Shown: positions 2,542 to 53,040 of the stretch, in pieces
Layout of the letters: each line of letters opens with the position of its first letter
How positions within the stretch are numbered: the first letter of the stretch is position 1
Assembly: GCA_937900325.1 (NCBI GenBank)
Contig: CALCEX010000118.1
Location: 15,903-79,902 of the forward strand
Source: an uncultured Clostridia bacterium
Lineage (GTDB): Bacteria; Bacillota; Clostridia; Christensenellales; CAG-138
Direction: 5' to 3'
DNA: 64,000 nucleotides
Position numbers and translations under genes: made by a program
Notes under the pieces: model-generated
The model's database searches: none
The model's input: the letters and a program-made list of their open reading frames with translations, nothing else
Told to the model about the DNA's origin: nothing

Positions 2542-2996
2542 AGGTTTTACTGACACAGGACGTTAAGGGCAAGGGCAAGGCCGGCGACATCATCAACGCG
2601 AACGACGGCTACGCAAGGAACTTCCTCATCCCCAGGGGACTGGCGGTCGCGGCGGACGCAAACAATATGCACGCCGCGAGCATTAAAAAGCAGGCAGACG
2701 AGCACCGCAGGGAGGTTGCGAGGCAGAACGCAAGGGCCCTTGCGGACGAGATGAAGGGACTCACCGTAAAGGTCTACGCCAAGGCGGGAAGCGGAAAGCT
2801 GTTCGGCTCGATAGGCGCGGCCGAGATAGCCGAGGCGCTAAGGGAGCAATACGGGATCGAAGTGGATAAAAAGCGCATAAAGCTGGAGGAGCCCATAAAG
2901 TCTCTGGGCATAACCGACATAACCGCCCACCTTTACGAGCAGACCGACACCAAATTCAAGGTAGAGGTGCTGCCCCTGGAGACGGGCAAGAATTAA
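2538..2996 (+). CDS. rplI: 50S ribosomal protein L9
   Basis: N-terminus MKVLLTQDVKGKGKAGDIINANDGYARNFLIPRGLA is the canonical L9 signature. It overlaps the gdpP stop (ATGA). Confidence 0.95.
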   Translation: MKVLLTQDVKGKGKAGDIINANDGYARNFLIPRGLAVAADANNMHAASIKKQADEHRREVARQNARALADEMKGLTVKVYAKAGSGKLFGSIGAAEIAEALREQYGIEVDKKRIKLEEPIKSLGITDITAHLYEQTDTKFKVEVLPLETGKN

Positions 2997-3023
2997 AGAC
3001 CCATAAGAGCGAGAGGACAGGAT

Positions 3024-4367
3024 ATGGAAGAACCCCGCGTACCCAACACGCCGCCCCACAGCCTTGAGGCGGAAAAATCCATACTGGGCAGTATGCTGCT
3101 GTCCCATACAGCCGTTGAGCAGGCCATGGAGACGCTTGACGCTTCCGATTTTTACCTTGCGCGGCATCAGGATATATTTCAGGCGGCAAAGGGCTTATAC
3201 GACAGGGGCGAGGCCATAGACAGCGTGACCGTCATAGACGCGCTGGACCGCATGGGCAAGCTTGCCGCCGTGGGCGGGGTGATGTACATCACCGAGCTTT
3301 CGCTGTATGTGCCGAGCGCGGCAAACGCAGCCCACTATATAAAAATAGTTGAGGAGCGCAGCGTGATGCGGCAGCTCATAGAGGCCAGCACAGCCATAGC
3401 CTCGGACGCCTTTTCGGGGGAAAAGAGCCTTGAGCAGATGCTGGACGACGCGGAGCGGGCCATATTCAACATATCCATGAAAAAGACCTCGGACACGCTG
3501 GTGCATATCAGCGAGACGGTGCTGACCTGCTATAACCGGGTGGGAGAGCTTATGAAGCTCAACGGCGCCCTCACCGGGGTCACAACGGGCTTTGCCGATC
3601 TCGACAGGCTGACATCGGGTATGCAGCCGAGCGACCTTGTGATAATCGCCGGCCGCCCCTCCATGGGCAAGACCGCCTTCGCGCTCAACCTCGCCCAGAA
3701 CGCGGCCATAAAGGGAAAGAAAACCGTCTGCATATTCAGCCTCGAGATGAGCCGGGAGCAGCTTGTTCAGCGTATGCTCTGCTCCGATTCCGGCGTAAAT
3801 ATGCAGTCCGTCCGCACCGGCGCCATAACCGATGCGGAGCTGATACGCATAGCGTCCTCCCTTGATCCCCTCTCCAGGGCGAACATATACATAGACGATT
3901 CCGCCGGGTGCAGCGTGGCCGAGATACGCAGCAAGTGCCGCAGGCTGCAATCCCGCGTAGGGCTGGATATGGTGGTCATAGACTATCTGCAGCTCATGCA
4001 GACCTCCGGCAGGTACGATAACCGCGTATTGGAAATATCCGAAACCACGCGCAAGCTGAAGATACTCGCCCGGGAGCTGAACGTCCCCATTCTGCTGCTG
4101 AGCCAGCTTTCCCGAGGCCCGGAGCAGCGCACGGATCACCGGCCCATAATGGCGGATCTTCGCGAATCCGGCGCTATCGAGCAGGATGCGGACGTGATAA
4201 TGCTGCTGTACCGCCCCGCCGTTTACGACGCGGAGGCGGACAACACCACCGAGGTGATAGTCGCAAAGCACCGCAACGGGCCTACCGCTACGGTAAAGCT
4301 GGCCTGGATAGACAGCAGCGCCAAATTCGCGGATCTCGATACCACGGGCCGGGACGAGGGTTTTTAA
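3024..4367 (+). CDS. dnaB: replicative DNA helicase DnaB
   Basis: N-terminal PPHSLEAEKSILGSML, Walker A GRPSMGKTAF, a RecA-like C-terminal domain, and the position after rplI. Confidence 0.95.
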   Translation: MEEPRVPNTPPHSLEAEKSILGSMLLSHTAVEQAMETLDASDFYLARHQDIFQAAKGLYDRGEAIDSVTVIDALDRMGKLAAVGGVMYITELSLYVPSAANAAHYIKIVEERSVMRQLIEASTAIASDAFSGEKSLEQMLDDAERAIFNISMKKTSDTLVHISETVLTCYNRVGELMKLNGALTGVTTGFADLDRLTSGMQPSDLVIIAGRPSMGKTAFALNLAQNAAIKGKKTVCIFSLEMSREQLVQRMLCSDSGVNMQSVRTGAITDAELIRIASSLDPLSRANIYIDDSAGCSVAEIRSKCRRLQSRVGLDMVVIDYLQLMQTSGRYDNRVLEISETTRKLKILARELNVPILLLSQLSRGPEQRTDHRPIMADLRESGAIEQDADVIMLLYRPAVYDAEADNTTEVIVAKHRNGPTATVKLAWIDSSAKFADLDTTGRDEGF

Positions 4368-4372
4368 AAGAT

Positions 4373-4580
4373 ATGAGCCTTCTTCTTTTCTCTTTCTTTT
4401 CGGGAAAAGAAAGAAGAAAAGAAGCAAAAGAGAAAGAAAAGCCGACAGGAAAATATAAAAAGGAACGGAGGGAACCGTTCCTTTATTGTTTTGATTTTTG
4501 TAAGCTTTTCTCTTTCTTTTTGCTGCTTTTTCTGTTCTCCTTTCTCGAAAAGAGAAAGAAAAAGCAGAGGCAGAAGCAAA
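4373..4580. repeat. polypurine/polypyrimidine (GAAA/CTTT-rich) inverted-repeat cluster
   Basis: Three imperfect hairpins: 4379-4424 (about a 20-bp stem), 4424-4443 with 4502-4523, and 4521-4567. They surround the terminator hairpin. The KEKE-type ORFs here are low-complexity artefacts. Confidence 0.8.
4457..4499. terminator. bidirectional intrinsic terminator (dnaB / yhaM)
   Basis: AGGAACGG-agggaa-CCGTTCCT stem (4461-4482), with an A-run upstream and a T-rich run downstream. It lies between convergent genes. Confidence 0.8.
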
Positions 4581-4583
4581 GCC

Positions 4584-5558
4584 TTATTTATGCCCGTGCT
4601 TGTATAGCTGCCGGTTGTCCAGCGCCCACTGGCGCTCGGTGAATTCGCCGTCGCCTACGGCGGCGAGGGCGTCGAACATCTCGAACATACGGGAATCCAG
4701 CACGTCCATCTGGCTGACTATCTCGGCCTCCGGGAACATGGGCGGCTTTGGGCTGCCGTATTCCGGCACGCTGTGGTGGGAGAGGAGTATATGCTGCACC
4801 AGCTCCTTGGTGGAGGGGTCTATCATAAGCTCCGCCGCCGCCCGCTCAACTATCGCCACGCCCATGCTTATATGGCCGAGGAGCTGGCCGGGGGTGCTGT
4901 AACCCGTCGCCAGGCCGAGCCCGCCTACCGTCAGCTCCGGCACCTTGGCTACGTCATGGAGTATTATGCCGGCATAGACCAGCTCGCAGCTAAGCGTTGG
5001 ATAAAGCTTTTTGTATATGCCGCAGACGGCCTCCGCCGCCTTGAGCATGGTATGGGTATGGTAGAGCAGGCCGCCCCGCATGGCGTGATGCAGCTTGAGC
5101 GCCGCGGGATAGCGCAGCAGCTCATCGCGGTTTTCCTTTAGTATGTACTGGGTGAGCATACGCAGATCGTTATCCGTAAAGCTCTCCGTGACCTTTATTA
5201 TCGCATCGTACATTTCCTGAGGGGGAAGCGGCGCGCAGGGCACAAGGCTTGCCATATCCACATCGTCGGAATCCCTCGCGGCGCGTATGCGGTCTATTTT
5301 AAGCTGCTCCGAGTCCTTCCATATGTTTACCGTAGCCCGGATTTTGACTATGCTGTCCGGCTCGTATACGCCGTGCTGCTCTATGCTGTAATCCCAGAGC
5401 TTGGCGGATATTTCGCCGCCGGCATCGGCAAGCACCATATCCAGATAGTCGCTGCCCTTTACGTTGCTCTTTATTGCCACGGATTTGACCACGCAAAAGC
5501 CCTCCACCTGGTTCCCGGCGGGGTTTACTATGTTGTTGAGCAGGTTCATGCGGCCCAT
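4584..5558 (-). CDS. yhaM: 3'-5' exoribonuclease YhaM (OB-fold plus HD domain)
   Basis: N-terminal OB-fold region (FCVVKSVAIKSNVKGSDYLDMVLAD), an HD motif (IILHDVAK, LSHH), and about 320 aa, as for B. subtilis YhaM. Confidence 0.8.
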   Translation of the reverse strand: MGRMNLLNNIVNPAGNQVEGFCVVKSVAIKSNVKGSDYLDMVLADAGGEISAKLWDYSIEQHGVYEPDSIVKIRATVNIWKDSEQLKIDRIRAARDSDDVDMASLVPCAPLPPQEMYDAIIKVTESFTDNDLRMLTQYILKENRDELLRYPAALKLHHAMRGGLLYHTHTMLKAAEAVCGIYKKLYPTLSCELVYAGIILHDVAKVPELTVGGLGLATGYSTPGQLLGHISMGVAIVERAAAELMIDPSTKELVQHILLSHHSVPEYGSPKPPMFPEAEIVSQMDVLDSRMFEMFDALAAVGDGEFTERQWALDNRQLYKHGHK

Positions 5559-5723
5559 GACGCTATCCTCCTTATGTTTATAGGGCTATTATATCATAAT
5601 ACGCGCCCCGCCGGAAATAAAATGCTTTTATGTAGTCTGAAACGCCTTATTCTGATATAATGTACGCAACCTTTTATGATGCCAGAACGTTTAAAATACA
5701 GATGAAGGGCAGGTAAGCGTACA

Positions 5724-6242
5724 TTGACCCCCAAGAGCATTGAAGCCATATACAGGGAAAACTGTAAAATGGTTTACTGGGCGGCGTATTCCGTGCTGAA
5801 GCGGGAAAGCGACGCCATGGATATCGCTCAGAGCGTATTCCTACGGGCGATAAAAAACGCGGATAAGCTGAATAAAATGGAGGACGGGCAGATAAAGGCG
5901 TGGCTGTACCGCGTGGCCGTAAACCTTTGCTATGACGCGGGCCGCAGGCTGAAGCGGGAGATACCCGCCGAGGAGCTGCCCGAGCCGCAAACCGACAGGG
6001 AATACGAGCTGCCCGAGGCCGCCGCCATATCCGGCGAGCAGCGGGAGCGGGTAAGGCGGGCCATCGACGCGCTGCCGGATATATACCGGGAAACGGTGCT
6101 GCTGCATTATTATTCGGGCTTGGACTACAAGACCATAGCGGCAATGCAGGGCAGCGCCGAGGGAACGGTGAAATCCCGGATATTCCGGGCAAAGGAAAGG
6201 CTCTATGAGCTGCTGAAGGAAGAAGGTGAGAAGAATGACTGA
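5724..6242 (+). CDS. ECF-type (sigma-70 family) RNA polymerase sigma factor
   Basis: Region 2 (DAMDIAQSVFLRAI, WLYRVAVNLCYD) and region 4 (LPDIYRETVLLHYYSGLDYKTIA...GTVKSRIFRAKERL). The start is a TTG and is uncertain. Confidence 0.85.
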   Translation: MTPKSIEAIYRENCKMVYWAAYSVLKRESDAMDIAQSVFLRAIKNADKLNKMEDGQIKAWLYRVAVNLCYDAGRRLKREIPAEELPEPQTDREYELPEAAAISGEQRERVRRAIDALPDIYRETVLLHYYSGLDYKTIAAMQGSAEGTVKSRIFRAKERLYELLKEEGEKND

Positions 6243-6903
6243 CAGGCTGGATGAGCTGCTGTTCTCAATAGGCGAGGAAGAAAACGGCAGGGTGGATTTT
6301 GACCAGATGTACGCAGAACTTCTCAAAAAGCAGAGCGAGGAGGAAGCAAAGCGCAGCAAAAGGCGGGCGCGCTTCGTGCGCTATGGCGCTATGGCGGCCT
6401 GCGCGGTGGCGCTCATAGGCATAGGCGCGGCGGCGATAAGTGATAGCATGAAAAAGCCCGAGACGCTTATGATGTCCGCCATGGAAGAGGAAGCCGCGGA
6501 GGAAGCGCCGCAGTCTGTTGAAGCCGCTCCGGCGGATGAAGCCCCTATGGAGGAGGCGGGAACGGCAGCGGAAGGGCCGATGGTGGCAGCGGCGGCCCCC
6601 GATACCGAAGCGGCCGAAGCGCCGAAAGCTGTCCCGGAGGAAAGAACGGCGGATAACGCAAAAAGCCAGGCCACGGCGGCTGCCGCGCAGGAGACCGCAG
6701 AGATAGGCACCTGCGCAGACGCTAAGAGCAGGCTCAAGGCGGCGGGCATAGAGGCGGAGCCCTATGAGGGCGATGACGCGCCGCAGGAAGGCTATGCGCT
6801 GATGATGGGCGGGGGCGAGGCGATATGGAACGCCGGAAGCGGGGTATATAAGGTAACGCTGAATGGCGACATCGCGGCGCGGCTTAAGAAGCTTTGCGAA
6901 TAA
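6235..6903 (+). CDS. putative single-pass anti-sigma factor (Ala/Glu-rich ectodomain)
   Basis: It overlaps the sigma gene stop by 8 nt, with GAAGGTGAG upstream of ATG 6235. A short cytoplasmic N-terminus is followed by one TM helix (YGAMAACAVALIGIGAAAI). The function is inferred from position only. Confidence 0.55.
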   Translation: MTDRLDELLFSIGEEENGRVDFDQMYAELLKKQSEEEAKRSKRRARFVRYGAMAACAVALIGIGAAAISDSMKKPETLMMSAMEEEAAEEAPQSVEAAPADEAPMEEAGTAAEGPMVAAAAPDTEAAEAPKAVPEERTADNAKSQATAAAAQETAEIGTCADAKSRLKAAGIEAEPYEGDDAPQEGYALMMGGGEAIWNAGSGVYKVTLNGDIAARLKKLCE

Positions 6904-27845: not shown

Positions 27846-28915
27846 CTCTTCAGCTTAGGATCGAAGGCGTCCCTGAGGCCGTCGCCCAGAAGGTTCATGG
27901 AAAGAACTATAAGGCAGATGGTAAGCGCGGGGAACACCAGCTTATAGGGGTAGGACTGAAGGCCGTCCCTGGCGTAGTTTGCGAGGGAGCCCAAGGAGGG
28001 CATCGGGGCGCGGACGCCCATACCTATAAAGGAGAGGTAGCTTTCGGTAAATATTGCCGAGGGTATCTGCAAGGCGGTTGTTATGATTATGACCGATATG
28101 CAGTTGGGCAGAATATGCTGCCGGATTATACGCCCGGAGCCTGCGCCTATGGATTGGGCGGCCAGGATATAGTCGTTCTCCTTTATGGAGAGTATCTGGC
28201 CGCGGATAAGGCGGGCCATGCCTACCCAATAAAGAAGGCCGAACACCAGGAACAGCGATATCATGTTTGCCCCCAGCTTGTTGAGAAGGGAACCTGTGGG
28301 GAAGTGTATCAGCTCATCGAATACCACAGCCAGCAGTATCACCATGAGCATATCGGGCAGGGAGTAGATGATATCCACTATCCGCATCATTATAAGGTCT
28401 ACCTTGCCGCCCAGATAGCCGGATATGCTGCCGTATATGACGCCGATTATCATGACTATTATGCTGGCGAAGAGGCCGACGCAGAGGGATACGCGGGTGC
28501 CGTATATAACGCGGATGAAATAATCGCGGCACTGTTCGTCCGTGCCGAAAATATGGGGGAAGCGCTCTCCGCCCTGGGCGATGTATTCCTGCTCCATCTC
28601 GCTGTATGTGAAGGGGGCCATGTTCTTGGCTCCCTTATCGCGCCTGCCGTTTACGGAAAGTATCTCGGAATACTTATAGGGCACGATCATCGGCGCGACT
28701 ATTATGGTGATTATGATGAGGGTGAGCACTATAAGGCTGGCCACGGCCAGAGGGTTCTTGAAGAGCTTGCGCATACCGTCCCGGAAGAAGGTAGTGCTCT
28801 TGCTCATAACGTCCTGCTGCCGCTTTTCCTCTTCGGTGGCGGGAGCAAACTTTTCAAGGTCTATCTGCATGCTCAGCGGGTTCTTTTTGGGAAGTGAGCC
28901 TTTGTTCTGTTCCAA
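27842..28915 (-). CDS. oppC: oligopeptide ABC transporter permease OppC
   Basis: BPD-transporter permease with the N-terminal OppC extension. It overlaps oppD by 4 nt. Confidence 0.88.
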   Translation of the reverse strand: MEQNKGSLPKKNPLSMQIDLEKFAPATEEEKRQQDVMSKSTTFFRDGMRKLFKNPLAVASLIVLTLIIITIIVAPMIVPYKYSEILSVNGRRDKGAKNMAPFTYSEMEQEYIAQGGERFPHIFGTDEQCRDYFIRVIYGTRVSLCVGLFASIIVMIIGVIYGSISGYLGGKVDLIMMRIVDIIYSLPDMLMVILLAVVFDELIHFPTGSLLNKLGANMISLFLVFGLLYWVGMARLIRGQILSIKENDYILAAQSIGAGSGRIIRQHILPNCISVIIITTALQIPSAIFTESYLSFIGMGVRAPMPSLGSLANYARDGLQSYPYKLVFPALTICLIVLSMNLLGDGLRDAFDPKLKR

Positions 28916-28934
28916 GAGTATCCGCCTCCTTTCT

Positions 28935-29846
28935 TTAGTCGTAATTGATGCGGGGATCGACCAGCTTATACAGCAGGTCGCATATGAGCGTCGCCGCTAC
29001 CATGAGGGTGGCAAGGAAGATCGTGGTGGCCATTATCATGGTGTAGTCGCGGTTGGTTATGGCGCTTACGAATTTACTGCCTATGCCGCCTATGGTGAAT
29101 ATCGTTTCGACTATCATGGAGCCGGTGATTATGTAGGCTATCTGCGGGCCGGCGTAGGTTATTACGGGAATGAGGGAGTTGCGCAGGGCGTGCTTGAAGA
29201 TGACGGTCCATTTATGTACGCCCTTTGCCTTTGCGGTGCGGATATAATCCTGGCTCAGCGCGTCGAGCATGCTCGTCTTGGAAAGGCGGGTGATGTAAGC
29301 CATTGGGTATGCCGAGAGCGCTATTACCGGAAGGACATAGCTGGGGTTATTGGCGCTCCAGACGGGCACCCAGCCCAGCTTTATACAAAATACAAGCAGC
29401 AGCAGCGTCGCCAGCACAAAGCTCGGCACTGCCGTAAACAGCGTAGAAAAGAATACTATGACGCGATCCGGCCATTTATTGCGCATGAGGGCGGCAACGC
29501 TGCCGAATACCGTGCCGCAAATCAGGGCGATGGATATGGCGCGAAGGCCGACCTTGCAGGATATGGGGAAGGATTCGGATATTATGGCGCTTATCTCGCG
29601 GCCGTTCTTGAGGGATACGCCGAAGTCGCCCTTGAGAAGCTCCTTGATATAGATACCGAACTGCACCACAACGGGCTTATCCAGATTGTATCTGGCCTCG
29701 AGCGCAGCGATGGTGGCCGGGTCGAGAGCCTTTTCGCGGTTGAACGGGCCGCCCGGAATGGCGTGCATAAGGAAAAATGTGATTGCGCATATTATGAATA
29801 CGGTGAGGACTGCAAGCAGGAGACGCTTGACAATGTATTTTGTCAC
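28935..29846 (-). CDS. oppB: oligopeptide ABC transporter permease OppB
   Basis: TKYIVKRLLLAVLTVFIICAITFFLMHAIPGGPF. GTG start at 29846 follows GGAGGGAG. The track ORF runs upstream through non-coding C-rich sequence. Confidence 0.88.
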   Translation of the reverse strand: MTKYIVKRLLLAVLTVFIICAITFFLMHAIPGGPFNREKALDPATIAALEARYNLDKPVVVQFGIYIKELLKGDFGVSLKNGREISAIISESFPISCKVGLRAISIALICGTVFGSVAALMRNKWPDRVIVFFSTLFTAVPSFVLATLLLLVFCIKLGWVPVWSANNPSYVLPVIALSAYPMAYITRLSKTSMLDALSQDYIRTAKAKGVHKWTVIFKHALRNSLIPVITYAGPQIAYIITGSMIVETIFTIGGIGSKFVSAITNRDYTMIMATTIFLATLMVAATLICDLLYKLVDPRINYD

Positions 29847-29895
29847 ATTTCTCCCTCCTTTCTGAGTTATTATTTTACCGGCTATGTATTTATTT

Positions 29896-29927
29896 ATTAT
29901 AATATTGACGGCGTGGCTCGTCAATAT
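29896..29927 (-). promoter_or_regulatory. consensus sigma-A promoter of the opp operon overlapped by a 9-bp inverted repeat
   Basis: On the minus strand: TTGACG (29924-29919), 17-nt spacer, TATAAT (29901-29896). ATATTGACG (29902-29910) and CGTCAATAT (29919-29927) form a perfect palindrome with an 8-nt spacer. Confidence 0.75.
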
Positions 29928-30011
29928 GTCATTTGTGCGGCAACGCGATAAAGCCCCGGTCCCGCAAAGGGGGAGGAGCGGGGGAGGGTACGGGGACGGG
30001 GGCGGAGGAAA

Positions 30012-30040
30012 GAAAAAAGTGGCCTTCGGCCACTTTTTCG
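30012..30040 (-). terminator. intrinsic terminator of the ybaK-like gene
   Basis: On the minus strand: GTGGCC-gaag-GGCCAC followed by T6. Confidence 0.8.
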
Positions 30041-30064
30041 ATTTAATATGATACGGTGCGTTTG

Positions 30065-30580
30065 CTATTCGGCTGTCTGCTCGCCGTCGCCTATATCCAG
30101 GAACTTTATCTCGTTGCCGCAGGCGCGGACGAACTTGATGAGGTCGTAACGGTGCAGCGCGACGGTCGCGTCGCTGGTAAGGGGATGGCAGCATACCATC
30201 TCGTCCCGGAGAATATCCTTGTCCACCACCAGAAGGGTCTTGTGCTCCTTGTCGTTCATCAGGGCAAGGGGGGTGACGGCGCCGGAGACTACGCCGAGGT
30301 TTTCCTCGAGCATTTCATCGGTGCAGAAGCTCAGGCGGGATACGCCCAGCTTGCGGCTCACCTCGGAGGTCTTGAATTTCTTATCTGCGCGGATGATTAT
30401 AATGAAGAAATTCGTCTCGGTATGGTCGCAGGCGTAGATGTTCTTGAAGTGCTTTGCGCCGACGTCGGCGCCTATGCCTTCGCAGTCCTCCATGGTCTTG
30501 GCCATGGGGTGCTCATAGTAGTAGTATTTAATGCCGAGCTCATCAAGCTTCTCAAGGGCTGGTTTTGCGGCTTCTCTCAT
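30065..30580 (-). CDS. YbaK/ProX-type aminoacyl-tRNA editing (deacylase) domain protein
   Basis: 171 aa. KHFKNIYACD...FIIIIRADKKF...LGVVSGAVTPLAL pattern, as in prolyl-tRNA-synthetase-associated domain proteins. Confidence 0.65.
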   Translation of the reverse strand: MREAAKPALEKLDELGIKYYYYEHPMAKTMEDCEGIGADVGAKHFKNIYACDHTETNFFIIIIRADKKFKTSEVSRKLGVSRLSFCTDEMLEENLGVVSGAVTPLALMNDKEHKTLLVVDKDILRDEMVCCHPLTSDATVALHRYDLIKFVRACGNEIKFLDIGDGEQTAE

Positions 30581-30630
30581 GATTCAATAGCTCCTCTCCA
30601 TGCAAAAAAGCTTAATATGGTCAAAACGAA

Positions 30631-30724
30631 TATCAGCTTTGACTATTTTACCACAGAGCGGCCGTCTTTGCAATCTGAAGCTGAGCTGTTTTTTGGGCTT
30701 GCGTGCTGCTGTCAACTGATGGTA
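30631..30724 (+). repeat. short (94-bp) degenerate copy of the 31766-32042 element
   Basis: 30695-30724 matches 32013-32042 at 26 of 30 nt. 30683-30698 resembles 31916-31932. The left end TATCAGCTTTGAC is a degenerate inverted copy of the right end. Confidence 0.65.
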
Positions 30725-30759
30725 TCCTTTTTTCATGCGCGAAGGAAGGGGGCTGCTTC

Positions 30760-31635
30760 ATGAAAAAGGGGATGCTTATAACCAACGGCTTCGTAGGCGA
30801 GGAAAGCTTCAAAAGCCTTTTCAGGGCCCTTATGGAGGCGGCAAAAAGGGAGAATATGGAAATAGAGCAGCGGGGCAACGACGGGCTGCTCTTCGACATA
30901 GCCTCGGGAAAGCCGCTTTTCGATATAGGCCGGTATTCCTTCGGCATATTCTGGGATAAGGACATAATGCTGGGGCGGATGCTGGAAAAATGCGGCCTGC
31001 GCCTTTTCAACAGCGCCGGCGCGGTCGCCCTCTGCGACGATAAGGCGCTGACCCATGCGGCGCTCTCGGGCAGGCTGCCCATGCCGAAAACGATCCCCGT
31101 GCCACAGACGTATAAATATGTAGGCTACGGCGAAATGGGCTTTTTGAAAAGGGCGGCGGAATATCTCGGGCTGCCGCTGATAATAAAGGAATGCCGCGGC
31201 TCCTTCGGCAAGCAGGTGTATCTTGCGCAAAGCGAGGAGCAGGCGGCGGAAATAATACGCTCCCATGAGGCCGCGCCCATGATCATGCAGCAGGCGGTGC
31301 GGGAAAGCTTCGGGCGGGACGTGCGCATATACGTCGTAGGCGGCGAGGTGATGGGCGCAATGCAGCGCAGCAACGACCGCGATTTCAGGGCCAACATAGC
31401 CAACGGCGGCAGCGCGGAGGCGTATGCGCCGGGGCGCGGGGAAAAGCGCCTTGCGCTGGAGGCGGTAAGGCTGCTGGGGCTGGACTTCGGCGGCGTGGAT
31501 ATACTGCACTCAAAGGACGGCCCGCTGCTTTGCGAGGTAAACTCAAACGCCCACTTTGCGGGCCTGGAAAAAAGCACCGGAGCGGATATTTCCGGCGCCA
31601 TTATGCGCTATATAAAGAGCGAGCTTGAAAAATAA
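30760..31635 (+). CDS. RimK-family ATP-grasp ligase
   Basis: ATP-grasp fold motifs (PLIIKECRGSFGKQVYL, DVRIYVVGGEV, DFRANIANGGSAE, GGVDIL...EVNSN). ATG 30760 follows GGAAGGGGG. Confidence 0.75.
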   Translation: MKKGMLITNGFVGEESFKSLFRALMEAAKRENMEIEQRGNDGLLFDIASGKPLFDIGRYSFGIFWDKDIMLGRMLEKCGLRLFNSAGAVALCDDKALTHAALSGRLPMPKTIPVPQTYKYVGYGEMGFLKRAAEYLGLPLIIKECRGSFGKQVYLAQSEEQAAEIIRSHEAAPMIMQQAVRESFGRDVRIYVVGGEVMGAMQRSNDRDFRANIANGGSAEAYAPGRGEKRLALEAVRLLGLDFGGVDILHSKDGPLLCEVNSNAHFAGLEKSTGADISGAIMRYIKSELEK

Positions 31636-31727
31636 GCCTTTCCCGCCGCGGAAAGGCGGGGCGGCCGGAGGGGCCGGCCAGGGTCAAAAAAAGTTCCGTT
31701 TCCGTTAAAAAAACGTAAAAACCGGGG

Positions 31728-31756
31728 TTGGCAAGGGGCAATTCGTATTTTATAAT
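31728..31756 (+). promoter_or_regulatory. near-consensus sigma-A promoter firing into the structured element
   Basis: TTGGCA (31728-31733), 17-nt spacer, TATAAT (31751-31756). Confidence 0.7.
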
Positions 31757-31765
31757 TAAAATATA

Positions 31766-32042
31766 TACCATTAGTTGACAAGGACACACAAGGTTTTAGG
31801 AGCCAGACAGCACGGCATAACCGCGTCGTCCTCGTTTGAAATACAACCAGTATTTCTGCACTCGTCCTCCTTGTTCTGCCATACTCTTTGGCTTCTAAAA
31901 CTCAAAGACCCTAAAGAGCTTGTTTTGAGGGCGATCCAAGGCCGAGGAGCGCAGTACTACTGGATGTAATACAAGCGACGAGAACGCAGGAGCGTCCCGA
32001 AACAAGCCTTTAGGGCTTGTGTGCTCTTGTCAACTAATGGTA
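31766..32042 (+). mobile_element. 277-bp TIR-bounded, TA-flanked non-coding element (MITE-like; alternatively a structured leader or small RNA)
   Basis: 27-nt terminal inverted repeats (25 of 27 complementary), each containing TTGACA. The interior is occupied by two long local helices. There is no credible ORF, and related copies exist at 30631-30724. Confidence 0.6.
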
Positions 32043-32103
32043 AAAAACCTCAATAAATCAAGAACGTTCCGCCTGATCGATTTTCATACTTTTCGGAGGA
32101 CAG

Positions 32104-32505
32104 ATGCAGGACAACAGGGAATATCACCGAACAGACATGGCCGCAGAAAAAGCGGAGAATACCGTCCATATTACGGAAGGCCGCGAGGCTATTGTTCACG
32201 ACCTGCCGGAAAGCCACAGGCTGAGCAAGACGCAGCATACCTTCCTGACGGTGCGCAACATCTTCGTGATAATAGCGGGAGGGCTGTTCGTGTTGTCCAT
32301 GCTGCACATAGAGCCCATATATCATTACTGGAACGTACTGAAATTCGTGGCGTATATACTGGGCGCGGGGGCATACGGCGCGGAGGTCGTGGTGCTGACG
32401 GACGGCTGGCGCAAAAACCCCGGCCTGAAGGAGATGCTCATGCCGTATATGTTCGGGGTTCTGTATGTGCTGCTGGGGTTCAACTACCTTCTGGGAAGCC
32501 ACTGA
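32104..32505 (+). CDS. small membrane protein (2-3 TM), unknown function
   Basis: GGAGGA RBS and hydrophobic segments (IFVIIAGGLFVLSML, FVAYILGAGAYGAEVVVL, MFGVLYVLLGFNYLL). Confidence 0.55.
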   Translation: MQDNREYHRTDMAAEKAENTVHITEGREAIVHDLPESHRLSKTQHTFLTVRNIFVIIAGGLFVLSMLHIEPIYHYWNVLKFVAYILGAGAYGAEVVVLTDGWRKNPGLKEMLMPYMFGVLYVLLGFNYLLGSH

Positions 32506-32522
32506 TAAGGCTGCGGAAAAAT

Positions 32523-32555
32523 AAAAAAAGGGACGGCAGGCCGCCGTCCTTTTTG
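32523..32555. terminator. bidirectional terminator
   Basis: A7-GGACGGC-aggcc-GCCGTCC-T5, between convergent genes. Confidence 0.85.
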
Positions 32556-32563
32556 ATTTCAAG

Positions 32564-32770
32564 TTATTTTTGCTTGCTTTCGAGGAACTGATTTATGGAA
32601 TCCACCAGCGCGTCGCAGTCTATGCCGTGAACGGCGCAGGCCTGCTCGAGGGTCTCGCCATGAGCCATTATGCAGCCCAGGCAGTGCATACCGGCCTCCA
32701 TGAGCAGATCGGCTATGGCAACGTCAACGTGCAGTATCTCTTCGATGGTCATATCCTTGTTTACAGACAT
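32564..32770 (-). CDS. DUF1858 (hybrid-cluster-protein-associated redox disulfide) domain protein
   Basis: 68 aa, MTIEEIL...MHCLGCIMAHGETLEQACAVHGID signature. AAAGGAGA RBS, with TGaTATAAT at 32811-32803 on the minus strand. Confidence 0.75.
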   Translation of the reverse strand: MSVNKDMTIEEILHVDVAIADLLMEAGMHCLGCIMAHGETLEQACAVHGIDCDALVDSINQFLESKQK

Positions 32771-32988
32771 ATTCGTTTCTCCTTTGTACGACGATTTACT
32801 ACATTATATCATGGGCGGAGGAAGAACAAAATATGCTTTTTGCGATAAACGAGGCAAAACGGCATGAAGCAAGAGCGCCATTTCCCTTTTTTCCGGAGCC
32901 GGAGCGTCCCATCACATTTTTTTATATACATTCAGGGCGGTTTGGGTGTAGAATATACATAATACTATGCAAGAGGCGTAAGGAGAAT

Positions 32989-34863
32989 ATGCGGGATAGG
33001 ATAAGCGACGCGGACCTTTACCTCTGGGGCGAAGGCACGAATTCATATGCATACCTCACTCTGGGCTGTCATAAGACCGAGCACAGGGGCTATGAAGCAT
33101 ACCGTTTTGCGGTATGGGCGCCAAACGCGGTGTCCGTAAGGGTAGTGGGCAGCTTTAACGGCTGGAACATAGAAGCGGATCCCATGCATCCCATAGGTGA
33201 AACGGGAGTATGGGAGGCCTTCATAGGCATCGCCCATCGGGGCGATACATACAAATATGCGATAGAGACCCGCATGGGTGAAATAATATACAAGGCCGAT
33301 CCATTTGCTTTCTATACCCAGAAGCGGCCCAACACGGCCTCCGTCATATGGGACCTTGAGGACGGCTATCTCTGGGGCGACGGGGATTATATGACGGCCC
33401 GCCGCAACGAGGACAGCCACGTCCTTCCTATGAACATATACGAGGCGCATCTGGGCTCATGGATAGAGGGGCTGGACTTTCCGGCCCTGTCCCGGCGGCT
33501 GGTGGGCTATGTAAAGGAGATGGGCTACACCCATATAGAGCTGCTGCCTGTATCCGAGTATCCGCTGGACGACAGCTGGGGCTATCAGGTCACGGGATAT
33601 TATTCCATAACCTCACGCTACGGCGACCCGTCGCAGTTCAAGGAATTTGTAGATCAGTGCCACCAGGCGGGGCTGGGCGTGATAGTGGACTGGGTACCCA
33701 CCCATTTTTGCAGGGACGAGCAGGGACTGAGGCTTTTCGACGGCACGCCGCTTTATGAGCATCCCGATCCGCGCAGGAGCGAGCAGCCCCAATGGGGGAC
33801 CACCCTCTTTAACTTTGAAAAAAACGAGGTAAGGAGCTTCCTCATATCCAACGCCGTGTTCCTCATGAAGGAATACCATATAGACGGGCTGAGGGCGGAC
33901 GCCGTGAGCTGCATGCTTTACCTGGACTACGGCAAGCAGGACGGGGAGTGGCTGCCCAACCGCTACGGCGGCCGGGAAAACATAGCGGCCATAGATTTCC
34001 TGCGCCAGCTTTCGGATACCGTCCGAAGGGAATGCCCCGGGGCGCTTCTGATAGCGGAGGAAAGCACGGCCTTCCCGGGCATGACCGCGCCCACCTCAAA
34101 GGGCGGCCTGGGCTTCGACTATAAATGGAACATGGGCTGGATGAACGACGTGCTGGACTATATGTCAATGGACAGCTACTTTCGGAGCTACCACCACGAC
34201 GAAGTGACCTTTTCCATGTGCTATGCCTTTTCAGAGCACTATATACTGCCCTTGTCACACGATGAGGTGGTGCACGGCAAAAAGTCCCTCATAGGCCGTA
34301 TGCCGGGAGAATATGCGGACAGGTTCAGCCAGATGAGGCTGCTCCTCATGTACCAGACGGCCCATCCCGGAAAGAAGCTGACCTTTATGGGCACGGAGAT
34401 CGCTCAGTTCATAGAGTGGAACTTCCGCCAATCGCTGGACTGGATGCTGCTGGATTACCCCACCCACGAGGCCATGCAGCGGTTCGTGAGGGAACTGAAC
34501 CACTTCTATACGCATACCCCGGCGCTGTATCAGCTGGACGACAGCTGGGAGGGCTTCGAATGGATATCCGTGGACGACAGGGAGCACAGCGTGCTGGCCT
34601 TCCTGAGAAGGGACGCGGAGGGCCGCAGGCTACTCTGCCTGTTCAACTTCACCCCCGTGGAGCATTATCCCTACCGGGTGCGGCTGCCCTTCATGGCAAC
34701 GCTGGACCAGGCCATATCAAACGTTGACCTGCGCGATATAAAGGGCGTTGAGACGGCGCGGCTCGAGGACGGCTACTATGCGGACATAATGCTTTCGCCA
34801 TACGAGGCGGTGTATTATTACGTAAACGAAGCGCAAACCGAAGCAGACCGGCAAACGCAATAA
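32989..34863 (+). CDS. glgB: 1,4-alpha-glucan branching enzyme
   Basis: GH13 branching-enzyme motifs (DWVPTHF, GLRADAV, IAEEST, LSHDEVVHGK). ATG 32989 follows AAGGAGA. Confidence 0.93.
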   Translation: MRDRISDADLYLWGEGTNSYAYLTLGCHKTEHRGYEAYRFAVWAPNAVSVRVVGSFNGWNIEADPMHPIGETGVWEAFIGIAHRGDTYKYAIETRMGEIIYKADPFAFYTQKRPNTASVIWDLEDGYLWGDGDYMTARRNEDSHVLPMNIYEAHLGSWIEGLDFPALSRRLVGYVKEMGYTHIELLPVSEYPLDDSWGYQVTGYYSITSRYGDPSQFKEFVDQCHQAGLGVIVDWVPTHFCRDEQGLRLFDGTPLYEHPDPRRSEQPQWGTTLFNFEKNEVRSFLISNAVFLMKEYHIDGLRADAVSCMLYLDYGKQDGEWLPNRYGGRENIAAIDFLRQLSDTVRRECPGALLIAEESTAFPGMTAPTSKGGLGFDYKWNMGWMNDVLDYMSMDSYFRSYHHDEVTFSMCYAFSEHYILPLSHDEVVHGKKSLIGRMPGEYADRFSQMRLLLMYQTAHPGKKLTFMGTEIAQFIEWNFRQSLDWMLLDYPTHEAMQRFVRELNHFYTHTPALYQLDDSWEGFEWISVDDREHSVLAFLRRDAEGRRLLCLFNFTPVEHYPYRVRLPFMATLDQAISNVDLRDIKGVETARLEDGYYADIMLSPYEAVYYYVNEAQTEADRQTQ

Positions 34864-34892
34864 TACTTTTCTTTACCCGATAAAAAAACATT

Positions 34893-34918
34893 TCCCGCCC
34901 CCTTTCGCCGGGGCGGGA
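34893..34918 (+). other. 9-bp GC hairpin between glgB and glgC, without a U-tract
   Basis: TCCCGCCCC-N8-GGGGCGGGA. Possibly a processing or stability element or a partial terminator. Confidence 0.3.
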
Positions 34919-34998
34919 CGCCATCATGGATCATATTAAAAAGCAAGCCTTTTCATTTACTTAGCACAATTTCCCATGAATGTACGAGGAGGTTCTAT

Positions 34999-36219
34999 AT
35001 GGTAAGAAAAAAGGTCGTCGCCATGCTTCTGGCAGGCGGGCAGGGAAGCAGGCTGAGCGTGCTGACCAACCGTATGGCCAAGCCCGCCGTGCCGTTCGGA
35101 GGTAAGTACAGGATAATAGACTTCCCCCTATCCAACTGCGTGAATTCCGGCATAGACACGGTGGGCGTGCTGACGCAGTATGAGCCTCTGGAGCTGAACG
35201 CCTACATAGGCACGGGCCAGGCCTGGGACCTTGACCGCAATTCCGGCGGCGTATTCGTGCTGCCGCCCTATCAGTCCAGCAACAGCGGAAGGTGGTATTC
35301 CGGCACGGCCAACGCCATATTCCAGAACATGGCGTTCATAGACAGGTACCATCCCGAGTATGTGCTCATACTCTCGGGCGACCATATATACAAGATGGAT
35401 TACGCCCTGATGCTGGATTACCATATAAGCAAGGGCGCCGACCTTACCGTGGCCGTCCGCACGGTGCCCATGGAGGAGGCTCACCGCTTCGGCATAATGA
35501 ACACGGACGGCGAGGGCCGCATAGTGGAATTCGAGGAAAAGCCAAAGCACCCGAAGAGCAATAAGGCTTCAATGGGCATATACATATTCTCATGGCCGGT
35601 GCTGAAAAAATACCTCATGCTGGACGAGCAGAACAGGGACTCCGAAAACGACTTCGGCAAGAACGTGATACCCGCCATACTGAACGACGGCCTTAAGGCA
35701 TACGCATACAGCTTCGACGCATACTGGAAGGACGTGGGCACGGTGCAGAGCCTGTGGGAGGCCAACATGGATCTCATATCGGACGAGCCGCCCATAGAGC
35801 TCAACGATCCCGATTGGAGGATATACAGCAAATCCCTGTGCATGCCGCCGCACTGCGTGGGAGAAAGGGCTACCATAAAGCGCTCCAGCATAACGGAGGG
35901 CTGCAACATATACGGCACGGTGGTACACAGCGTGATATTCGGCGGCGTGAATATAGAAGAGGGCGCGGAGGTTACGGATTCCGTGGTAATGCCGGGGGCC
36001 GTAATAAGGAGCGGCGCAAAGGTACGCCGGGCCATAATAGGCGAAAACTCCATAGTCGGCGAGGGCTCCTTCGTAGGGGCCGAGAGAAGGCCGGAGGACG
36101 GGGAATACAATACCTCCCTCACGGACGATATAACCCTTATAGCCAGCGATACCGAGATAGAATCGGGCAGGCGGGTCCCCGTGGGCATGATAGTCAACGC
36201 CACAAGGAAGGAGTGCTGA
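34999..36219 (+). CDS. glgC: glucose-1-phosphate adenylyltransferase
   Basis: [41 protein letters not shown], plus a C-terminal left-handed beta-helix. Confidence 0.93.
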
Positions 36220-36223
36220 TCTC

Positions 36224-37351
36224 ATGGGAAACAACGATGTGTTCGGCCTTATATATACCGGCGAGTCCAGTATGCAGCTGCGCGATCTGACCTATTCGAG
36301 GTCCGTCGCCGCGGTGCCCTTTGCGGGCAGATACCGCTGCATAGACTTCATAATGAGCGACCTTGTAAACACGGGCATTTCCAACGTGGGAATAATCGCC
36401 CAGAAGAATTATCACTCGCTGATGGACCATCTCGGCTCCGGCAAGGAATGGGAGCTGCACAGGAAGCGGGACGGGCTCTTCATACTGCCCCCCTTCGTTA
36501 CGAGGGACAATACCGGCATATACCGGGGAACCATAGACGCATTCCATTCCGTGATGGGCTACATACGGCGCAGCTCCCAGAAATACATAATAATCTCCGG
36601 CAGCCACACCGTGTTCAATACCACCTTCAACGAAATGATAGCCCAGCATATACGCACCGGAGCCGACATAACCTTCATGTACAATGAAGTCGGCATACAT
36701 CACCCGGACGACCAGTTCAACGAGCTGCGCTTCAACCTGGCGGAGGACGGCAGGGTAACAGGCATACAGCTCAACCCGAACCAGCCCGCGACCCCCCATT
36801 CCTCCTGCGATGTCGTTATGATGGAAAAGACGACGTTCGAATACCTCATAGAGGACGCATACAGCAGGGGAGATACCGATTTTCTAAGGGACGTGCTGCT
36901 GCGCAAGGTAGACGAGCTGAGGATGTACGGCTGGAGGTACGACGGCTATGTGGGCTGCATAAGCTCGCTGCCCGGCTACTTCAACCACAATATCAACGTA
37001 CTCAGGAGCGAGGTGAGGCGCGACCTGTTTAATCCCGAGCACCCTATATACACCAAGGTAAAGGACGAGGTGCCCGCCCGCTACAAGGGAGACTCCAGGG
37101 CCCGCAACTGCCTTGTTGCAGACGGCTGCGTGATAGAGGGAGAGGTGGAAAACTGCGTGCTGTTCCGCGGCGTGCATATAGGCAGGGGAGCAAAAGTAAA
37201 GAACTGCGTGGTGCTTCAGGCCTGCGATATACAGAAGGACTGCGAATTGTCGTATGTGATACTCGATAAGGGCTGTACCGTTCGCCAGGGGCGCCGCCTT
37301 GCGGGCTACGACAGCTTTCCCATAATAATCAGAAAGGGCAGTACGGTTTAA
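36224..37351 (+). CDS. glgD: glucose-1-phosphate adenylyltransferase subunit GlgD
   Basis: A GlgC paralog lacking the GGxGxR motif (LTYSRSVAAVPFAGRYRCIDFIMSDLVNTG). Its position after glgC is the Firmicute arrangement. Confidence 0.85.
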   Translation: MGNNDVFGLIYTGESSMQLRDLTYSRSVAAVPFAGRYRCIDFIMSDLVNTGISNVGIIAQKNYHSLMDHLGSGKEWELHRKRDGLFILPPFVTRDNTGIYRGTIDAFHSVMGYIRRSSQKYIIISGSHTVFNTTFNEMIAQHIRTGADITFMYNEVGIHHPDDQFNELRFNLAEDGRVTGIQLNPNQPATPHSSCDVVMMEKTTFEYLIEDAYSRGDTDFLRDVLLRKVDELRMYGWRYDGYVGCISSLPGYFNHNINVLRSEVRRDLFNPEHPIYTKVKDEVPARYKGDSRARNCLVADGCVIEGEVENCVLFRGVHIGRGAKVKNCVVLQACDIQKDCELSYVILDKGCTVRQGRRLAGYDSFPIIIRKGSTV

Positions 37352-38878
37352 ATGCCAAAGAAGATCAGCGCCGGCGTCAGGGCCGGGGAAGGTATAGCGG
37401 AAAAAAAGGCGGAAATAAAGGAGGCCGCAAAGCGGCCGCCGCGCAGGGTGCTGTTCCTTGCGTCGGAGTGCGTGCCCTTCGTAAAGACCGGGGGGCTGGC
37501 GGACGTTATAGGCGCGCTGCCAAAGGAGCTCAGAAGGCAGGGAGCGGACGTGAGGGTGATGATACCCCTGTATTCCGCCATAGACCATAGGTACCGGGAG
37601 CAGATGAGGCGCATATGCGAGTTTTATGTGCAGCTCGGCTGGCGCAGCCAGTATTGCGGCATACTTACAATGGAGTATCAGGGTGTGCCGGTGTACTTCA
37701 TAGACAACGAGTATTACTTCGGCAGGGGCTACATATACGGCCAGTGCAACAACGACGAGGGGGAGCGCTTCGCTTTCTTCTCCAAGGCCGCGCTGGAGGC
37801 CATGCCGCATATAGGCTTCTTCCCGGATGTGCTCCATGCCCACGACTGGCAGGCGGCGATGAGCATCGCCCTGCTGCGTATGCAGTACGGCAAAAGCCCG
37901 GATTACCGCCGCATACGCACGGTATATACCATACACAACCTGAAGTATCAGGGGGTATTCGGCTGGCCCTTCATGGATGGGCTGCTCTCAATAGGCGCCG
38001 AGCACTTTACGGGCGAGAGCCTTGAATACTATGGCGACGTGAACTTCACCAAGGGGGCGCTGGTGTATTCCGACATTATAACCACCGTCAGCCCTACCTA
38101 TGCCGGAGAGATACAGTCTCCCGAGTACGGCGAGACGCTGGACGGGGTGCTGCGCTGGCGCAGCCGGGACATATACGGCATAATGAACGGCATAGACGAG
38201 AGCCTTTTTGACCCCGCAACGGATAAGGCCATATATGCGAATTACTCCCTTGACGATATGAGCGGCAAGGCAAGGTGCAAGGAATCGCTGAGGACGGAGT
38301 TCTGGCTCGATAAGGACGCTTCGCCCATAATCGGCATGGTCACGCGCTTTACGGATCAGAAGGGCCTTGATCTGGTAGAATACGCCATATCCGCGCTGAT
38401 GGAAAAGGGAGTGCAGCTTGCCGTGCTCGGCAGCGGCGACGCGCGCTATGAGCACCTGTTTTCCTGGGCAAGCTGGCGTTACGGCGGCAGGATAGCCGCC
38501 CGTTACAGCCACGATACCACCCTGGCCAACCGCATATACGCGGGCGCGGATATGTTCCTCATGCCGTCAAGGTTCGAGCCGTGCGGATTGTCGCAGCTCA
38601 TAGCCCTTCGCTACGGCACGCTGCCCATAGTGAGAGAGACGGGGGGATTAAAGGACAGCATAATCCCATACAATAAGTTCACGGGAGAGGGGCTGGGCTT
38701 CACCTTCCGGCAGTATAACCACATAGATATGCTGGGCGCGGTGGACAGGGCCATAGAGGCCTACCGGCAGCCCAAGGTATGGGAGGGCCTTATGAGGAAC
38801 GCCATGAGCGCCCACTTCACATGGGAAAGGTCCGCAGGAAAATACATGGAGCTTTACGAGAGACTGAGCGAAAGGTAG
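37352..38878 (+). CDS. glgA: glycogen synthase (ADP-glucose type)
   Basis: LFLASECVPFVKTGGLADV motif and a C-terminal GT1 domain. TAAATG junction with glgD. It has an N-terminal extension of about 30 aa relative to typical GlgA. Confidence 0.92.
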   Translation: MPKKISAGVRAGEGIAEKKAEIKEAAKRPPRRVLFLASECVPFVKTGGLADVIGALPKELRRQGADVRVMIPLYSAIDHRYREQMRRICEFYVQLGWRSQYCGILTMEYQGVPVYFIDNEYYFGRGYIYGQCNNDEGERFAFFSKAALEAMPHIGFFPDVLHAHDWQAAMSIALLRMQYGKSPDYRRIRTVYTIHNLKYQGVFGWPFMDGLLSIGAEHFTGESLEYYGDVNFTKGALVYSDIITTVSPTYAGEIQSPEYGETLDGVLRWRSRDIYGIMNGIDESLFDPATDKAIYANYSLDDMSGKARCKESLRTEFWLDKDASPIIGMVTRFTDQKGLDLVEYAISALMEKGVQLAVLGSGDARYEHLFSWASWRYGGRIAARYSHDTTLANRIYAGADMFLMPSRFEPCGLSQLIALRYGTLPIVRETGGLKDSIIPYNKFTGEGLGFTFRQYNHIDMLGAVDRAIEAYRQPKVWEGLMRNAMSAHFTWERSAGKYMELYERLSER

Positions 38879-52764: not shown

Positions 52765-52841
52765 TGGCGCGCCCTGAGGGATTCGAACCCGCGACCTTCT
52801 GGTCCGTAGCCAGACGCTCTATCCAGCTGGGCTAAGGGCGC
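52765..52841 (-). tRNA. tRNA-Arg (anticodon ACG), CCA encoded
   Basis: Cloverleaf by hand: acceptor GCGCCCT/AGGGCGC, anticodon stem TCTGG/CCAGA with loop CTACGGA, T-loop TTCGAAT. Two stem mismatches are noted (12:23 C-A, 50:64 C-U). Confidence 0.85.
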
Positions 52842-52964: not shown

Positions 52965-53040
52965 GGGGCATTAGCACAGTTGGTAGCGCGCAACGTTCGC
53001 AATGTTGAGGTCAGGGGTTCGAATCCCCTATGCTCCACCA
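52965..53040 (+). tRNA. tRNA-Ala (anticodon CGC), CCA encoded
   Basis: Acceptor GGGGCAT/ATGCTCC with the G3-U70 alanine identity pair, anticodon loop TTCGCAA, T-arm AGGGG-TTCGAAT-CCCCT. Confidence 0.9.

Follow-up and report, generated by a model that had tools for sequence, protein, structure and literature searches.

The 273-bp segment at positions 31768-32040 of the window, by which we mean the whole 64-kb stretch of DNA analyzed here, is in all likelihood one copy of a non-coding, non-autonomous DNA transposon of the MITE kind that duplicates its TA target. The MITE proper, which lies in plus orientation and reads CCATTAG...CTAATGG, is missing along with one TA from a locus of the same species (L004); together with the TAs of the target-site duplication on its left (31766-31767) and right (32041-32042), the total length is 277 bp. 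Its left terminal inverted repeat at 31768-31792 on the plus strand (25 nt excluding the TA, with a TTGACA inside) pairs with the right terminal inverted repeat at 32016-32040 on the minus strand. The first-pass annotation of this DNA had described inverted arms of 27 nt with 2 non-complementary positions and a TA at both outer ends, and both descriptions held when the sequence was compared with itself: the arm at 31766-31792 (TACCATTAGTTGACAAGGACACACAAG), counted with its TA, is the reverse complement of 32016-32042 at 93% with 2 mismatches, the two arms enclosing 223 bp. Within the window, the arm sequence occurs at only these two sites, and two arm matches were recovered in 0 of 100 dinucleotide-preserving shuffles. 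The plus strand of the window copy corresponds to the orientation of the family, as set by alignment to other copies. The element as a whole is a long imperfect palindrome, its left half being ~63% identical to its right half when the latter is read as the reverse complement.

The segment lacks coding capacity. Stops are present in all six frames of the 277 bp, no gene was called inside the element in any of the 7 filled loci, and six-frame protein searches yielded matches only to host genes running into copies, all of which bears out the earlier statement that there is no credible ORF. The inward TTGACA of each arm, which had been singled out before, is better read as a piece of the conserved terminal repeat than as a promoter; in a promoter scan of the element no -10 partner was found for it at a distance of 16-18 nt, nor was an outward promoter detected, the sole extra site being a weak 9/12 minus-strand match across the left junction. 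Accordingly, the terminal inverted repeats, the target-site duplication, the lack of coding capacity and the presence at multiple unrelated loci that mark a MITE are all found here, as is the size (273 bp plus the TA duplication, in a family ranging from 187 to 334 bp).

The insertion itself is documented by an empty site. We gathered loci as contigs encoding exactly the 133-aa protein specified by 32104-32505, which gave 8 places, all from one metagenome assembly series. The RimK-like gene and the gene for the 133-aa protein are 468 nt apart in 7 of these 8 places vs. 193 nt in L004, which is shorter by exactly 275 bp and retains a single TA. The empty allele is from sample ERZ26858496, and filled alleles are from ERZ26858467/498. 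The junction in L004 reads ...TATAATTAAAATATATA|AAAAACCTCAATAAATC... (in a shorter form, ...AAAATATATA|AAAAACC...), while the filled loci and the window read ...AAAATATA-TA-CCATTAG...CTAATGG-TA-AAAAACC.... When L004 was compared with the window by BLAST, its positions 1-2939 matched 28829-31767 and its positions 2938-6402 matched 32041-35505, with identities of 98.9% and 99.9%, respectively. Flank identities of this order place L004 in the same species as the window, and the overlap of the two pieces by the 2 nt of the TA delimits the element to 31768-32040, inserted at a duplicated TA. Based on this exact conspecific empty site and on the many TA-flanked copies at unrelated loci described below, the proposal of a non-autonomous transposon with TA duplication, one of two readings offered by the first-pass annotation, is upheld. 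Among a total of 23 contigs, only L004 carries the empty allele; the remaining contigs group with the filled places (15 were assigned by such grouping, and none grouped with L004), making the filled allele the majority. The orientation of the element is identical in all 7 filled loci. One contig, L008, starts exactly at CCATTAG, with five similar contigs, and two viral contigs, L056 and L060, break off within a copy; breaks of this type at the edges of the element are the typical stop of an assembler at a repeat.

The family is spread over many unrelated loci in gut Clostridia (Oscillospiraceae). In the sequences examined, comprising gut metagenome contigs, viral contigs and the isolate Vescimonas fastidiosa, we counted at least 12 distinct insertion sites with the window included, i.e. 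at least 11 besides the window. Every copy with both ends in the sequence displayed a TA on each side, with otherwise unrelated flanks and no other conserved flank base. The copies lie in both orientations relative to the neighboring genes, and their settings vary: some precede a gene, while others are at 3' ends, between convergent genes or within called ORFs. The extra copies mentioned in the earlier annotation exist in other contigs but were not confirmed for the window, where a search for a second full copy gave only a 34-nt solo right-end remnant. This remnant, at 30691-30724 on the plus strand (TTTTGGGCTTGCGTGCTGCTGTCAACTGATGGTA, 29/34 identical, ending in ...GATGGTA), was probably left behind by an earlier insertion of a family member; 36 nt separate it from the called start of the RimK-like gene (30760) downstream, and a variant of it is also present in L004.

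The copies divide into two subfamilies that are ~63% identical, with lengths of 187, 222, 277-279 and 332-334 bp. Two 277-bp copies, L051:5472-5748 and L052:4158-4434, are 97.5% and 95.7% identical to the window copy, respectively. The second subfamily was recovered in an end scan of a metagenome collection with TACCATTAGTTGACAAG, which gave mostly chance matches but also an element of 277 bp with both ends, ~63% identical to the window copy, in L041, L032 and L028. Alignment of the window copy with this second subfamily gave 149.5 in the plus vs. 78 in the opposite orientation, and the L041 type has the same three-helix architecture. To gather copies, we searched the concatenated six-frame translation of each subfamily against a protein database, with the result that eight called genes (P0001-P0008) were found to run into copies. 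Copies of the second subfamily comprise L062:3028-3304 (at the same site as L041), L063:3776-4053, L064:3308-3584, L065:526-804, L066:3826-4159 (334 bp), L067:2102-2288 (187 bp), L072:401-732 and L073:384-605, as well as a full 277-bp, TA-flanked copy on pMM35_01 of Vescimonas fastidiosa MM35 (NZ_AP023416.1:189629-189905, equal to L068:6001-6277). The length variants arise in two ways: some copies (L066 and L072) have ~57 bp inserted where the right hairpin has its tip, for a total of 332-334 bp, and others (L067 and L073) have lost the left internal hairpin, which leaves 187 or 222 bp. L073 and L066 have common flanks and represent one insertion site with different internal forms. The V. fastidiosa copy, found by BLAST with a second-subfamily copy as query, is situated between convergent S1-domain and gamma-carbonic-anhydrase genes and is unannotated in the record; it is the one full copy in the searched V. 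fastidiosa replicon, and the 64-kb window likewise holds one. As a whole-element BLAST query, the window copy gave no match in plasmids or phages; with the second-subfamily query, copies were found in both the plasmid and the phage collections.

As a profile, the family ends can be written TACCATYRNTYGACAAGRRCA. Most copies have CCATCAG or CCATCGA, the end variant TACCATTAGTTGACAAG being a minority, and the genome and metagenome scans made with that variant thus under-sampled the family; in the genome collection, it gave chance single matches only. A perfect 21-nt match to the right arm (TACCATTAGTTGACAAGAGCA) at L023:4419-4439, L026:7019-7039 and L048:576-596 had no second arm and no transposase nearby, and we regard it as either the solo end of a related element or a chance match; the three matches share one locus, flanked in L026 by a LysR-type regulator gene on one side and an nrdD-like gene on the other. 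A single phage gave further isolated 21-nt matches (L069-L071), which probably have nothing to do with the family. Three IMG/VR contigs classed as viral (L056, L060 and L061) carry copies, with the examined sequence of L061 stopping inside one, and two of the second-subfamily copies, L073 among them, are in 'Bacteriophage sp.' scaffolds from human faeces (MT837146.1 and MT836441.1). Gene callers run ORFs through copies, as exemplified by L062:3001-4473, L051:3996-5675 and those of L063-L067 (P0001-P0008); in the case of P0003, a DUF4317 protein, the ORF begins 27 nt ahead of the L062 copy and continues through all 277 bp.

Folding of the 277-nt plus strand yielded a minimum free energy of -120.9 kcal/mol vs. 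-72 for shuffles (z = -9.3), and the minus strand did as well or better (-129.2 kcal/mol, z = -10.0). The predicted fold is Y-shaped, with a terminal stem and two local hairpins of ~110 nt, and reproduces the two long interior helices and the GAAATAC/GTATTTC hairpin that had been described in the first-pass annotation. The left internal hairpin (31793-31901, plus strand), with the GAAATAC/GTATTTC tip at 31838-31856, folds at the same place in the second subfamily, and the right internal hairpin (31909-32015, plus strand) keeps its pairs via double changes between subfamilies. In a 13-sequence alignment, 98% of the cells in the consensus structure are paired, and 18 of 57 pairs are preserved despite changes on both sides; as a control on the same alignment, sliding the structure by 1-3 columns left ~40% paired. 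These double changes mostly separate the two subfamilies and hence amount to few independent events. The terminal-arm variants CCATTAG, CCATCAG, CCATCGAT and CCATCGCT each pair with their own complement, and changes matched in this way between the two arms of the terminal stem would be expected if both ends must fit one transposase. As for the strand, the minus strand is better by 8-20 kcal/mol in the subfamily of the window, vs. the plus strand in 7 of 9 copies of the second subfamily. With no consistent strand bias and with copies in both orientations, the best reading of the conserved Y shape is DNA palindromy and not a strand-specific RNA. The Y fold is nevertheless about constant in length across two subfamilies that are only ~63% identical, and the retention of the internal hairpins between them leaves room for a structural function beyond simple transposon decay. 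That the Y architecture is itself selected, be it as a DNA hairpin or cruciform for an unusual mode of mobilization or as a portable RNA module for host genes (an RNase III target or a 5' stabilizer), strikes us as rather improbable.

Directly upstream of the element, and outside it, lies a sigma-70-like promoter, TTGGCA-17-TATAAT (31728-31756, plus strand), which agrees with the consensus at 11/12 positions and is identical in L004. The first-pass annotation had recognized this near-consensus promoter correctly, but in one of its two readings had taken it for a dedicated promoter of the element; being unchanged in the empty-site strain, it belongs to the host gene. We found no plus-strand terminator-like site between the promoter and 32104, and the sequence has the GGAGGA RBS ahead of the ATG at 32104, as had been claimed on both counts. 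The native 5' leader (32043-32103, plus strand; 61 nt), which contains this RBS at 32095-32100, directly follows the promoter region in L004. The host gene (32104-32505, plus strand) encodes a protein of 133 aa that contains hydrophobic segments and matches no Pfam family. The target TA is positioned 10-11 nt past the -10 hexamer, which by promoter geometry would put it near the expected start of transcription, and co-transcription of the element as part of the 5' leader is to be expected. In filled strains, the host mRNA would then begin with a very stable Y fold of ~275 nt, followed by the 61-nt native leader. If expression is affected, the long stem might be cut by RNase III, as happens in Correia elements, or the 5' end might be stabilized.

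Two CCUCC direct repeats, TCGTCCTCGTT (31826-31836) and TCGTCCTCCTT (31862-31872), are found in loops of the left hairpin, and 31847-31870 and the RBS/start region of the downstream gene (32095-32118) show 71% complementarity. Sequestration of the RBS by these repeats was considered and rejected, as the pairing is unused in the predicted fold and the motif is missing from the second subfamily.

Among the readings to be weighed, one takes the element for a MITE and adds that it has been co-opted at this locus to alter expression of the 133-aa gene by way of RNase III, 5' stem-loop stabilization or CCUCC-RBS pairing. The insertion just past the -10 hexamer with expected co-transcription, the majority status of the filled allele, the complementarity of the CCUCC repeats (31826-31836 and 31862-31872) to the RBS region and the precedents of Correia and ERIC elements (PMC10969869, PMC2649163) are compatible with such a role. 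However, in the predicted fold of the whole leader, the element forms a closed module and the RBS region folds alike with or without it, i.e. as in the empty allele, and the CCUCC motifs do not extend to the second subfamily; we therefore see co-option as unlikely, albeit worth entertaining. A more radical departure is the other reading of the first-pass annotation, a dedicated structured leader RNA (riboswitch-like) or a small RNA gene with its own promoter at 31728-31756. Its appeal lies in the very stable fold (z = -9.3), in helices kept with double changes across the family and in a near-consensus promoter placed directly upstream with no terminator before the gene. Yet L004 has the promoter and the gene unchanged without the element, and the copies elsewhere are found in both orientations, at 3' ends, in convergent gaps and inside called ORFs, so that neither a fixed orientation and position nor a conserved gene association, as befits a cis-regulatory leader, is seen; moreover, the strand that folds better is the minus in the window subfamily and the plus in most of the other. 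An Rfam search, as had been suggested, matched no known RNA family: at gathering score there was nothing relevant in the whole window, and for 31600-32200 at E<=10 there were only two chance-level matches outside the element. With the empty site in L004, the leader RNA reading is already for the most part disproved, and we consider it very improbable.

The same geometry could also be taken for an inverton, a segment that is flipped by a site-specific recombinase and thereby switches the downstream gene. Inverted repeats of 27 bp around 223 bp, located between a promoter and a gene, resemble the known C. difficile switches of cwpV and flgB, and this likeness counts in favor of an inverton. A further precedent is that Correia elements have been reported to invert (PMC10969869). 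Against it, all 7 filled loci have one orientation in the assemblies, without the two orientations at one locus that define an inverton; the polymorphism is one of presence/absence with TA duplication and not of inversion; no recombinase gene is adjacent; and the same element is scattered over unrelated loci. We hold an inverton to be extremely improbable, and return to the MITE reading.

How this MITE is mobilized can be approached from its target. From the TA duplication by itself, we infer that a DDE transposase of the IS630/Tc1-mariner type may mobilize it in trans; such an enzyme would recognize the terminal repeats of ~25 bp and insert the element at TA. Insertion that is specific for TA and duplicates it characterizes the IS630/Tc1-mariner superfamily (PMC2170065, PMC2229807), and both features are found here. 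Scans for an autonomous partner with exact 17-21-mers, using one end variant in the genome and metagenome collections, gave neither an end pair 0.9-2 kb apart nor a transposase with matching ends; no candidate for a partner IS emerged from degenerate end scans or a 46-nt end query, and no transposase domain was among the precomputed Pfam hits of the eight proteins from the six-frame search. A cognate autonomous IS with matching ends is thus the one MITE feature that did not surface in the scans made, as is the case for accepted bacterial MITEs such as Correia, which are without a known transposase (PMC2229807, PMC2649163, PMC10969869). A DDE_Tnp_1 transposase gene is located 2.6 kb from the L063 copy; this IS was examined as a partner and dismissed, as the terminal repeat has no additional match in L063 and the ends are apparently not common to both.

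The lack of an IS630-type partner in the scans, the two large subterminal hairpins and this DDE_Tnp_1 gene 2.6 kb from the L063 copy might instead speak for an enzyme other than an IS630/Tc1-mariner transposase, for example one of the IS5 group or the IS30 type, with 2-bp duplications, or a single-strand transposase of the IS200/IS605 type acting on the internal hairpins. However, TA borders each site on both sides and is the only conserved part of the flanks, which is the signature of IS630/Tc1-mariner. Derivatives of IS200/IS605 have no terminal inverted repeats and no duplication, in contrast to this element, with its 25-nt terminal repeats reaching to the very ends. With respect to the IS near the L063 copy, it appears not to share ends with the element, L063 being without a further terminal-repeat match. 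Such a different enzyme is, in our judgment, decidedly unlikely, and an IS630/Tc1-mariner-type transposase acting in trans is the reading that we retain for the MITE.

With regard to the surroundings, a small DUF1858 gene (32564-32770, minus strand) is convergent with the gene of the 133-aa protein, with a minus-strand terminator-like hairpin at 32531-32549 just after it. A glycogen cluster lies beyond, comprising a branching-enzyme-like gene (32833-34863; CBM_48 and alpha-amylase) and a nucleotidyltransferase gene (34999-36219), and the ORFs at 36224-37351 and 37352-38878 are glgD- and glgA-like by sequence. In a BLAST comparison with plasmids, the only match was one of 68% over glgB-glgC to Subdoligranulum variabile, which would fit a host among Oscillospiraceae-like Clostridia without deciding the matter. 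Two divergent tRNA genes (52768-52841, minus strand; 52965-53037, plus strand) are the sole Rfam matches in the window at gathering score.

The finding is of practical use in several respects. As a natural polymorphism between co-circulating strains of one gut Clostridia species, located between a promoter and its gene, the insertion offers a ready test of the effect of a MITE in a 5' leader. The family goes unannotated even in the RefSeq record of V. fastidiosa and breaks metagenome assemblies at its edges; in addition, chimeric proteins (P0001-P0008) enter the protein databases, which recognition of the family would help to clean up. The copies in gut viral contigs hint at one possible route of spread. 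None of the papers listed in a literature search linked MITEs to gut Oscillospiraceae or related taxa, and this family from gut Clostridia seems to be undescribed, though the kind of element is itself ordinary.

Several known systems invite comparison. Like invertons, the window element has inverted repeats enclosing a few hundred bp of DNA that separate a promoter from a gene, but it differs in that no inversion is seen and in that it is dispersed and TA-duplicating. Correia/NEMIS elements of Neisseria are similarly non-coding, with terminal inverted repeats of ~24-26 bp and TA duplication (PMC2229807 Table 1; PMC2649163; PMC10969869), and likewise show presence/absence differences between strains and often reside just upstream of genes (PMC2229807; PMC2649163; PMC10969869). 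Correia/NEMIS hairpins are co-transcribed and cleaved by RNase III (PMC2229807, PMC2649163, PMC10969869); co-transcription as long hairpins, predicted in the case of the window element, and the lack of a known cognate transposase are common to both. The differences are nonetheless considerable: 1) the sequences are unrelated, and the hosts belong to different phyla; 2) the window element has 273 bp vs. roughly 100-200 bp in Correia/NEMIS; 3) its predicted fold is a three-way junction vs. a single hairpin; 4) no outward promoter was detected, and an IHF site or RNase III cleavage would be conjectural for the window element. RUP of Streptococcus pneumoniae is likewise a Gram-positive MITE that inserts at TA and has stops in every frame (PMC2229807); it measures 107 bp and depends on IS630-Spn1, with terminal repeats that match a known IS630 member, whereas no partner IS was found for the window element. 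The likeness to IS630/Tc1-mariner elements themselves, as represented by ISY100, consists of integration at TA with its duplication and of terminal inverted repeats (PMC2170065); it rests on the TA duplication and not on the sequence of the ends, and the window element differs in having no transposase gene. For transposons of the ISY100 type, the transposase alone suffices for both excision and integration (PMC2170065).
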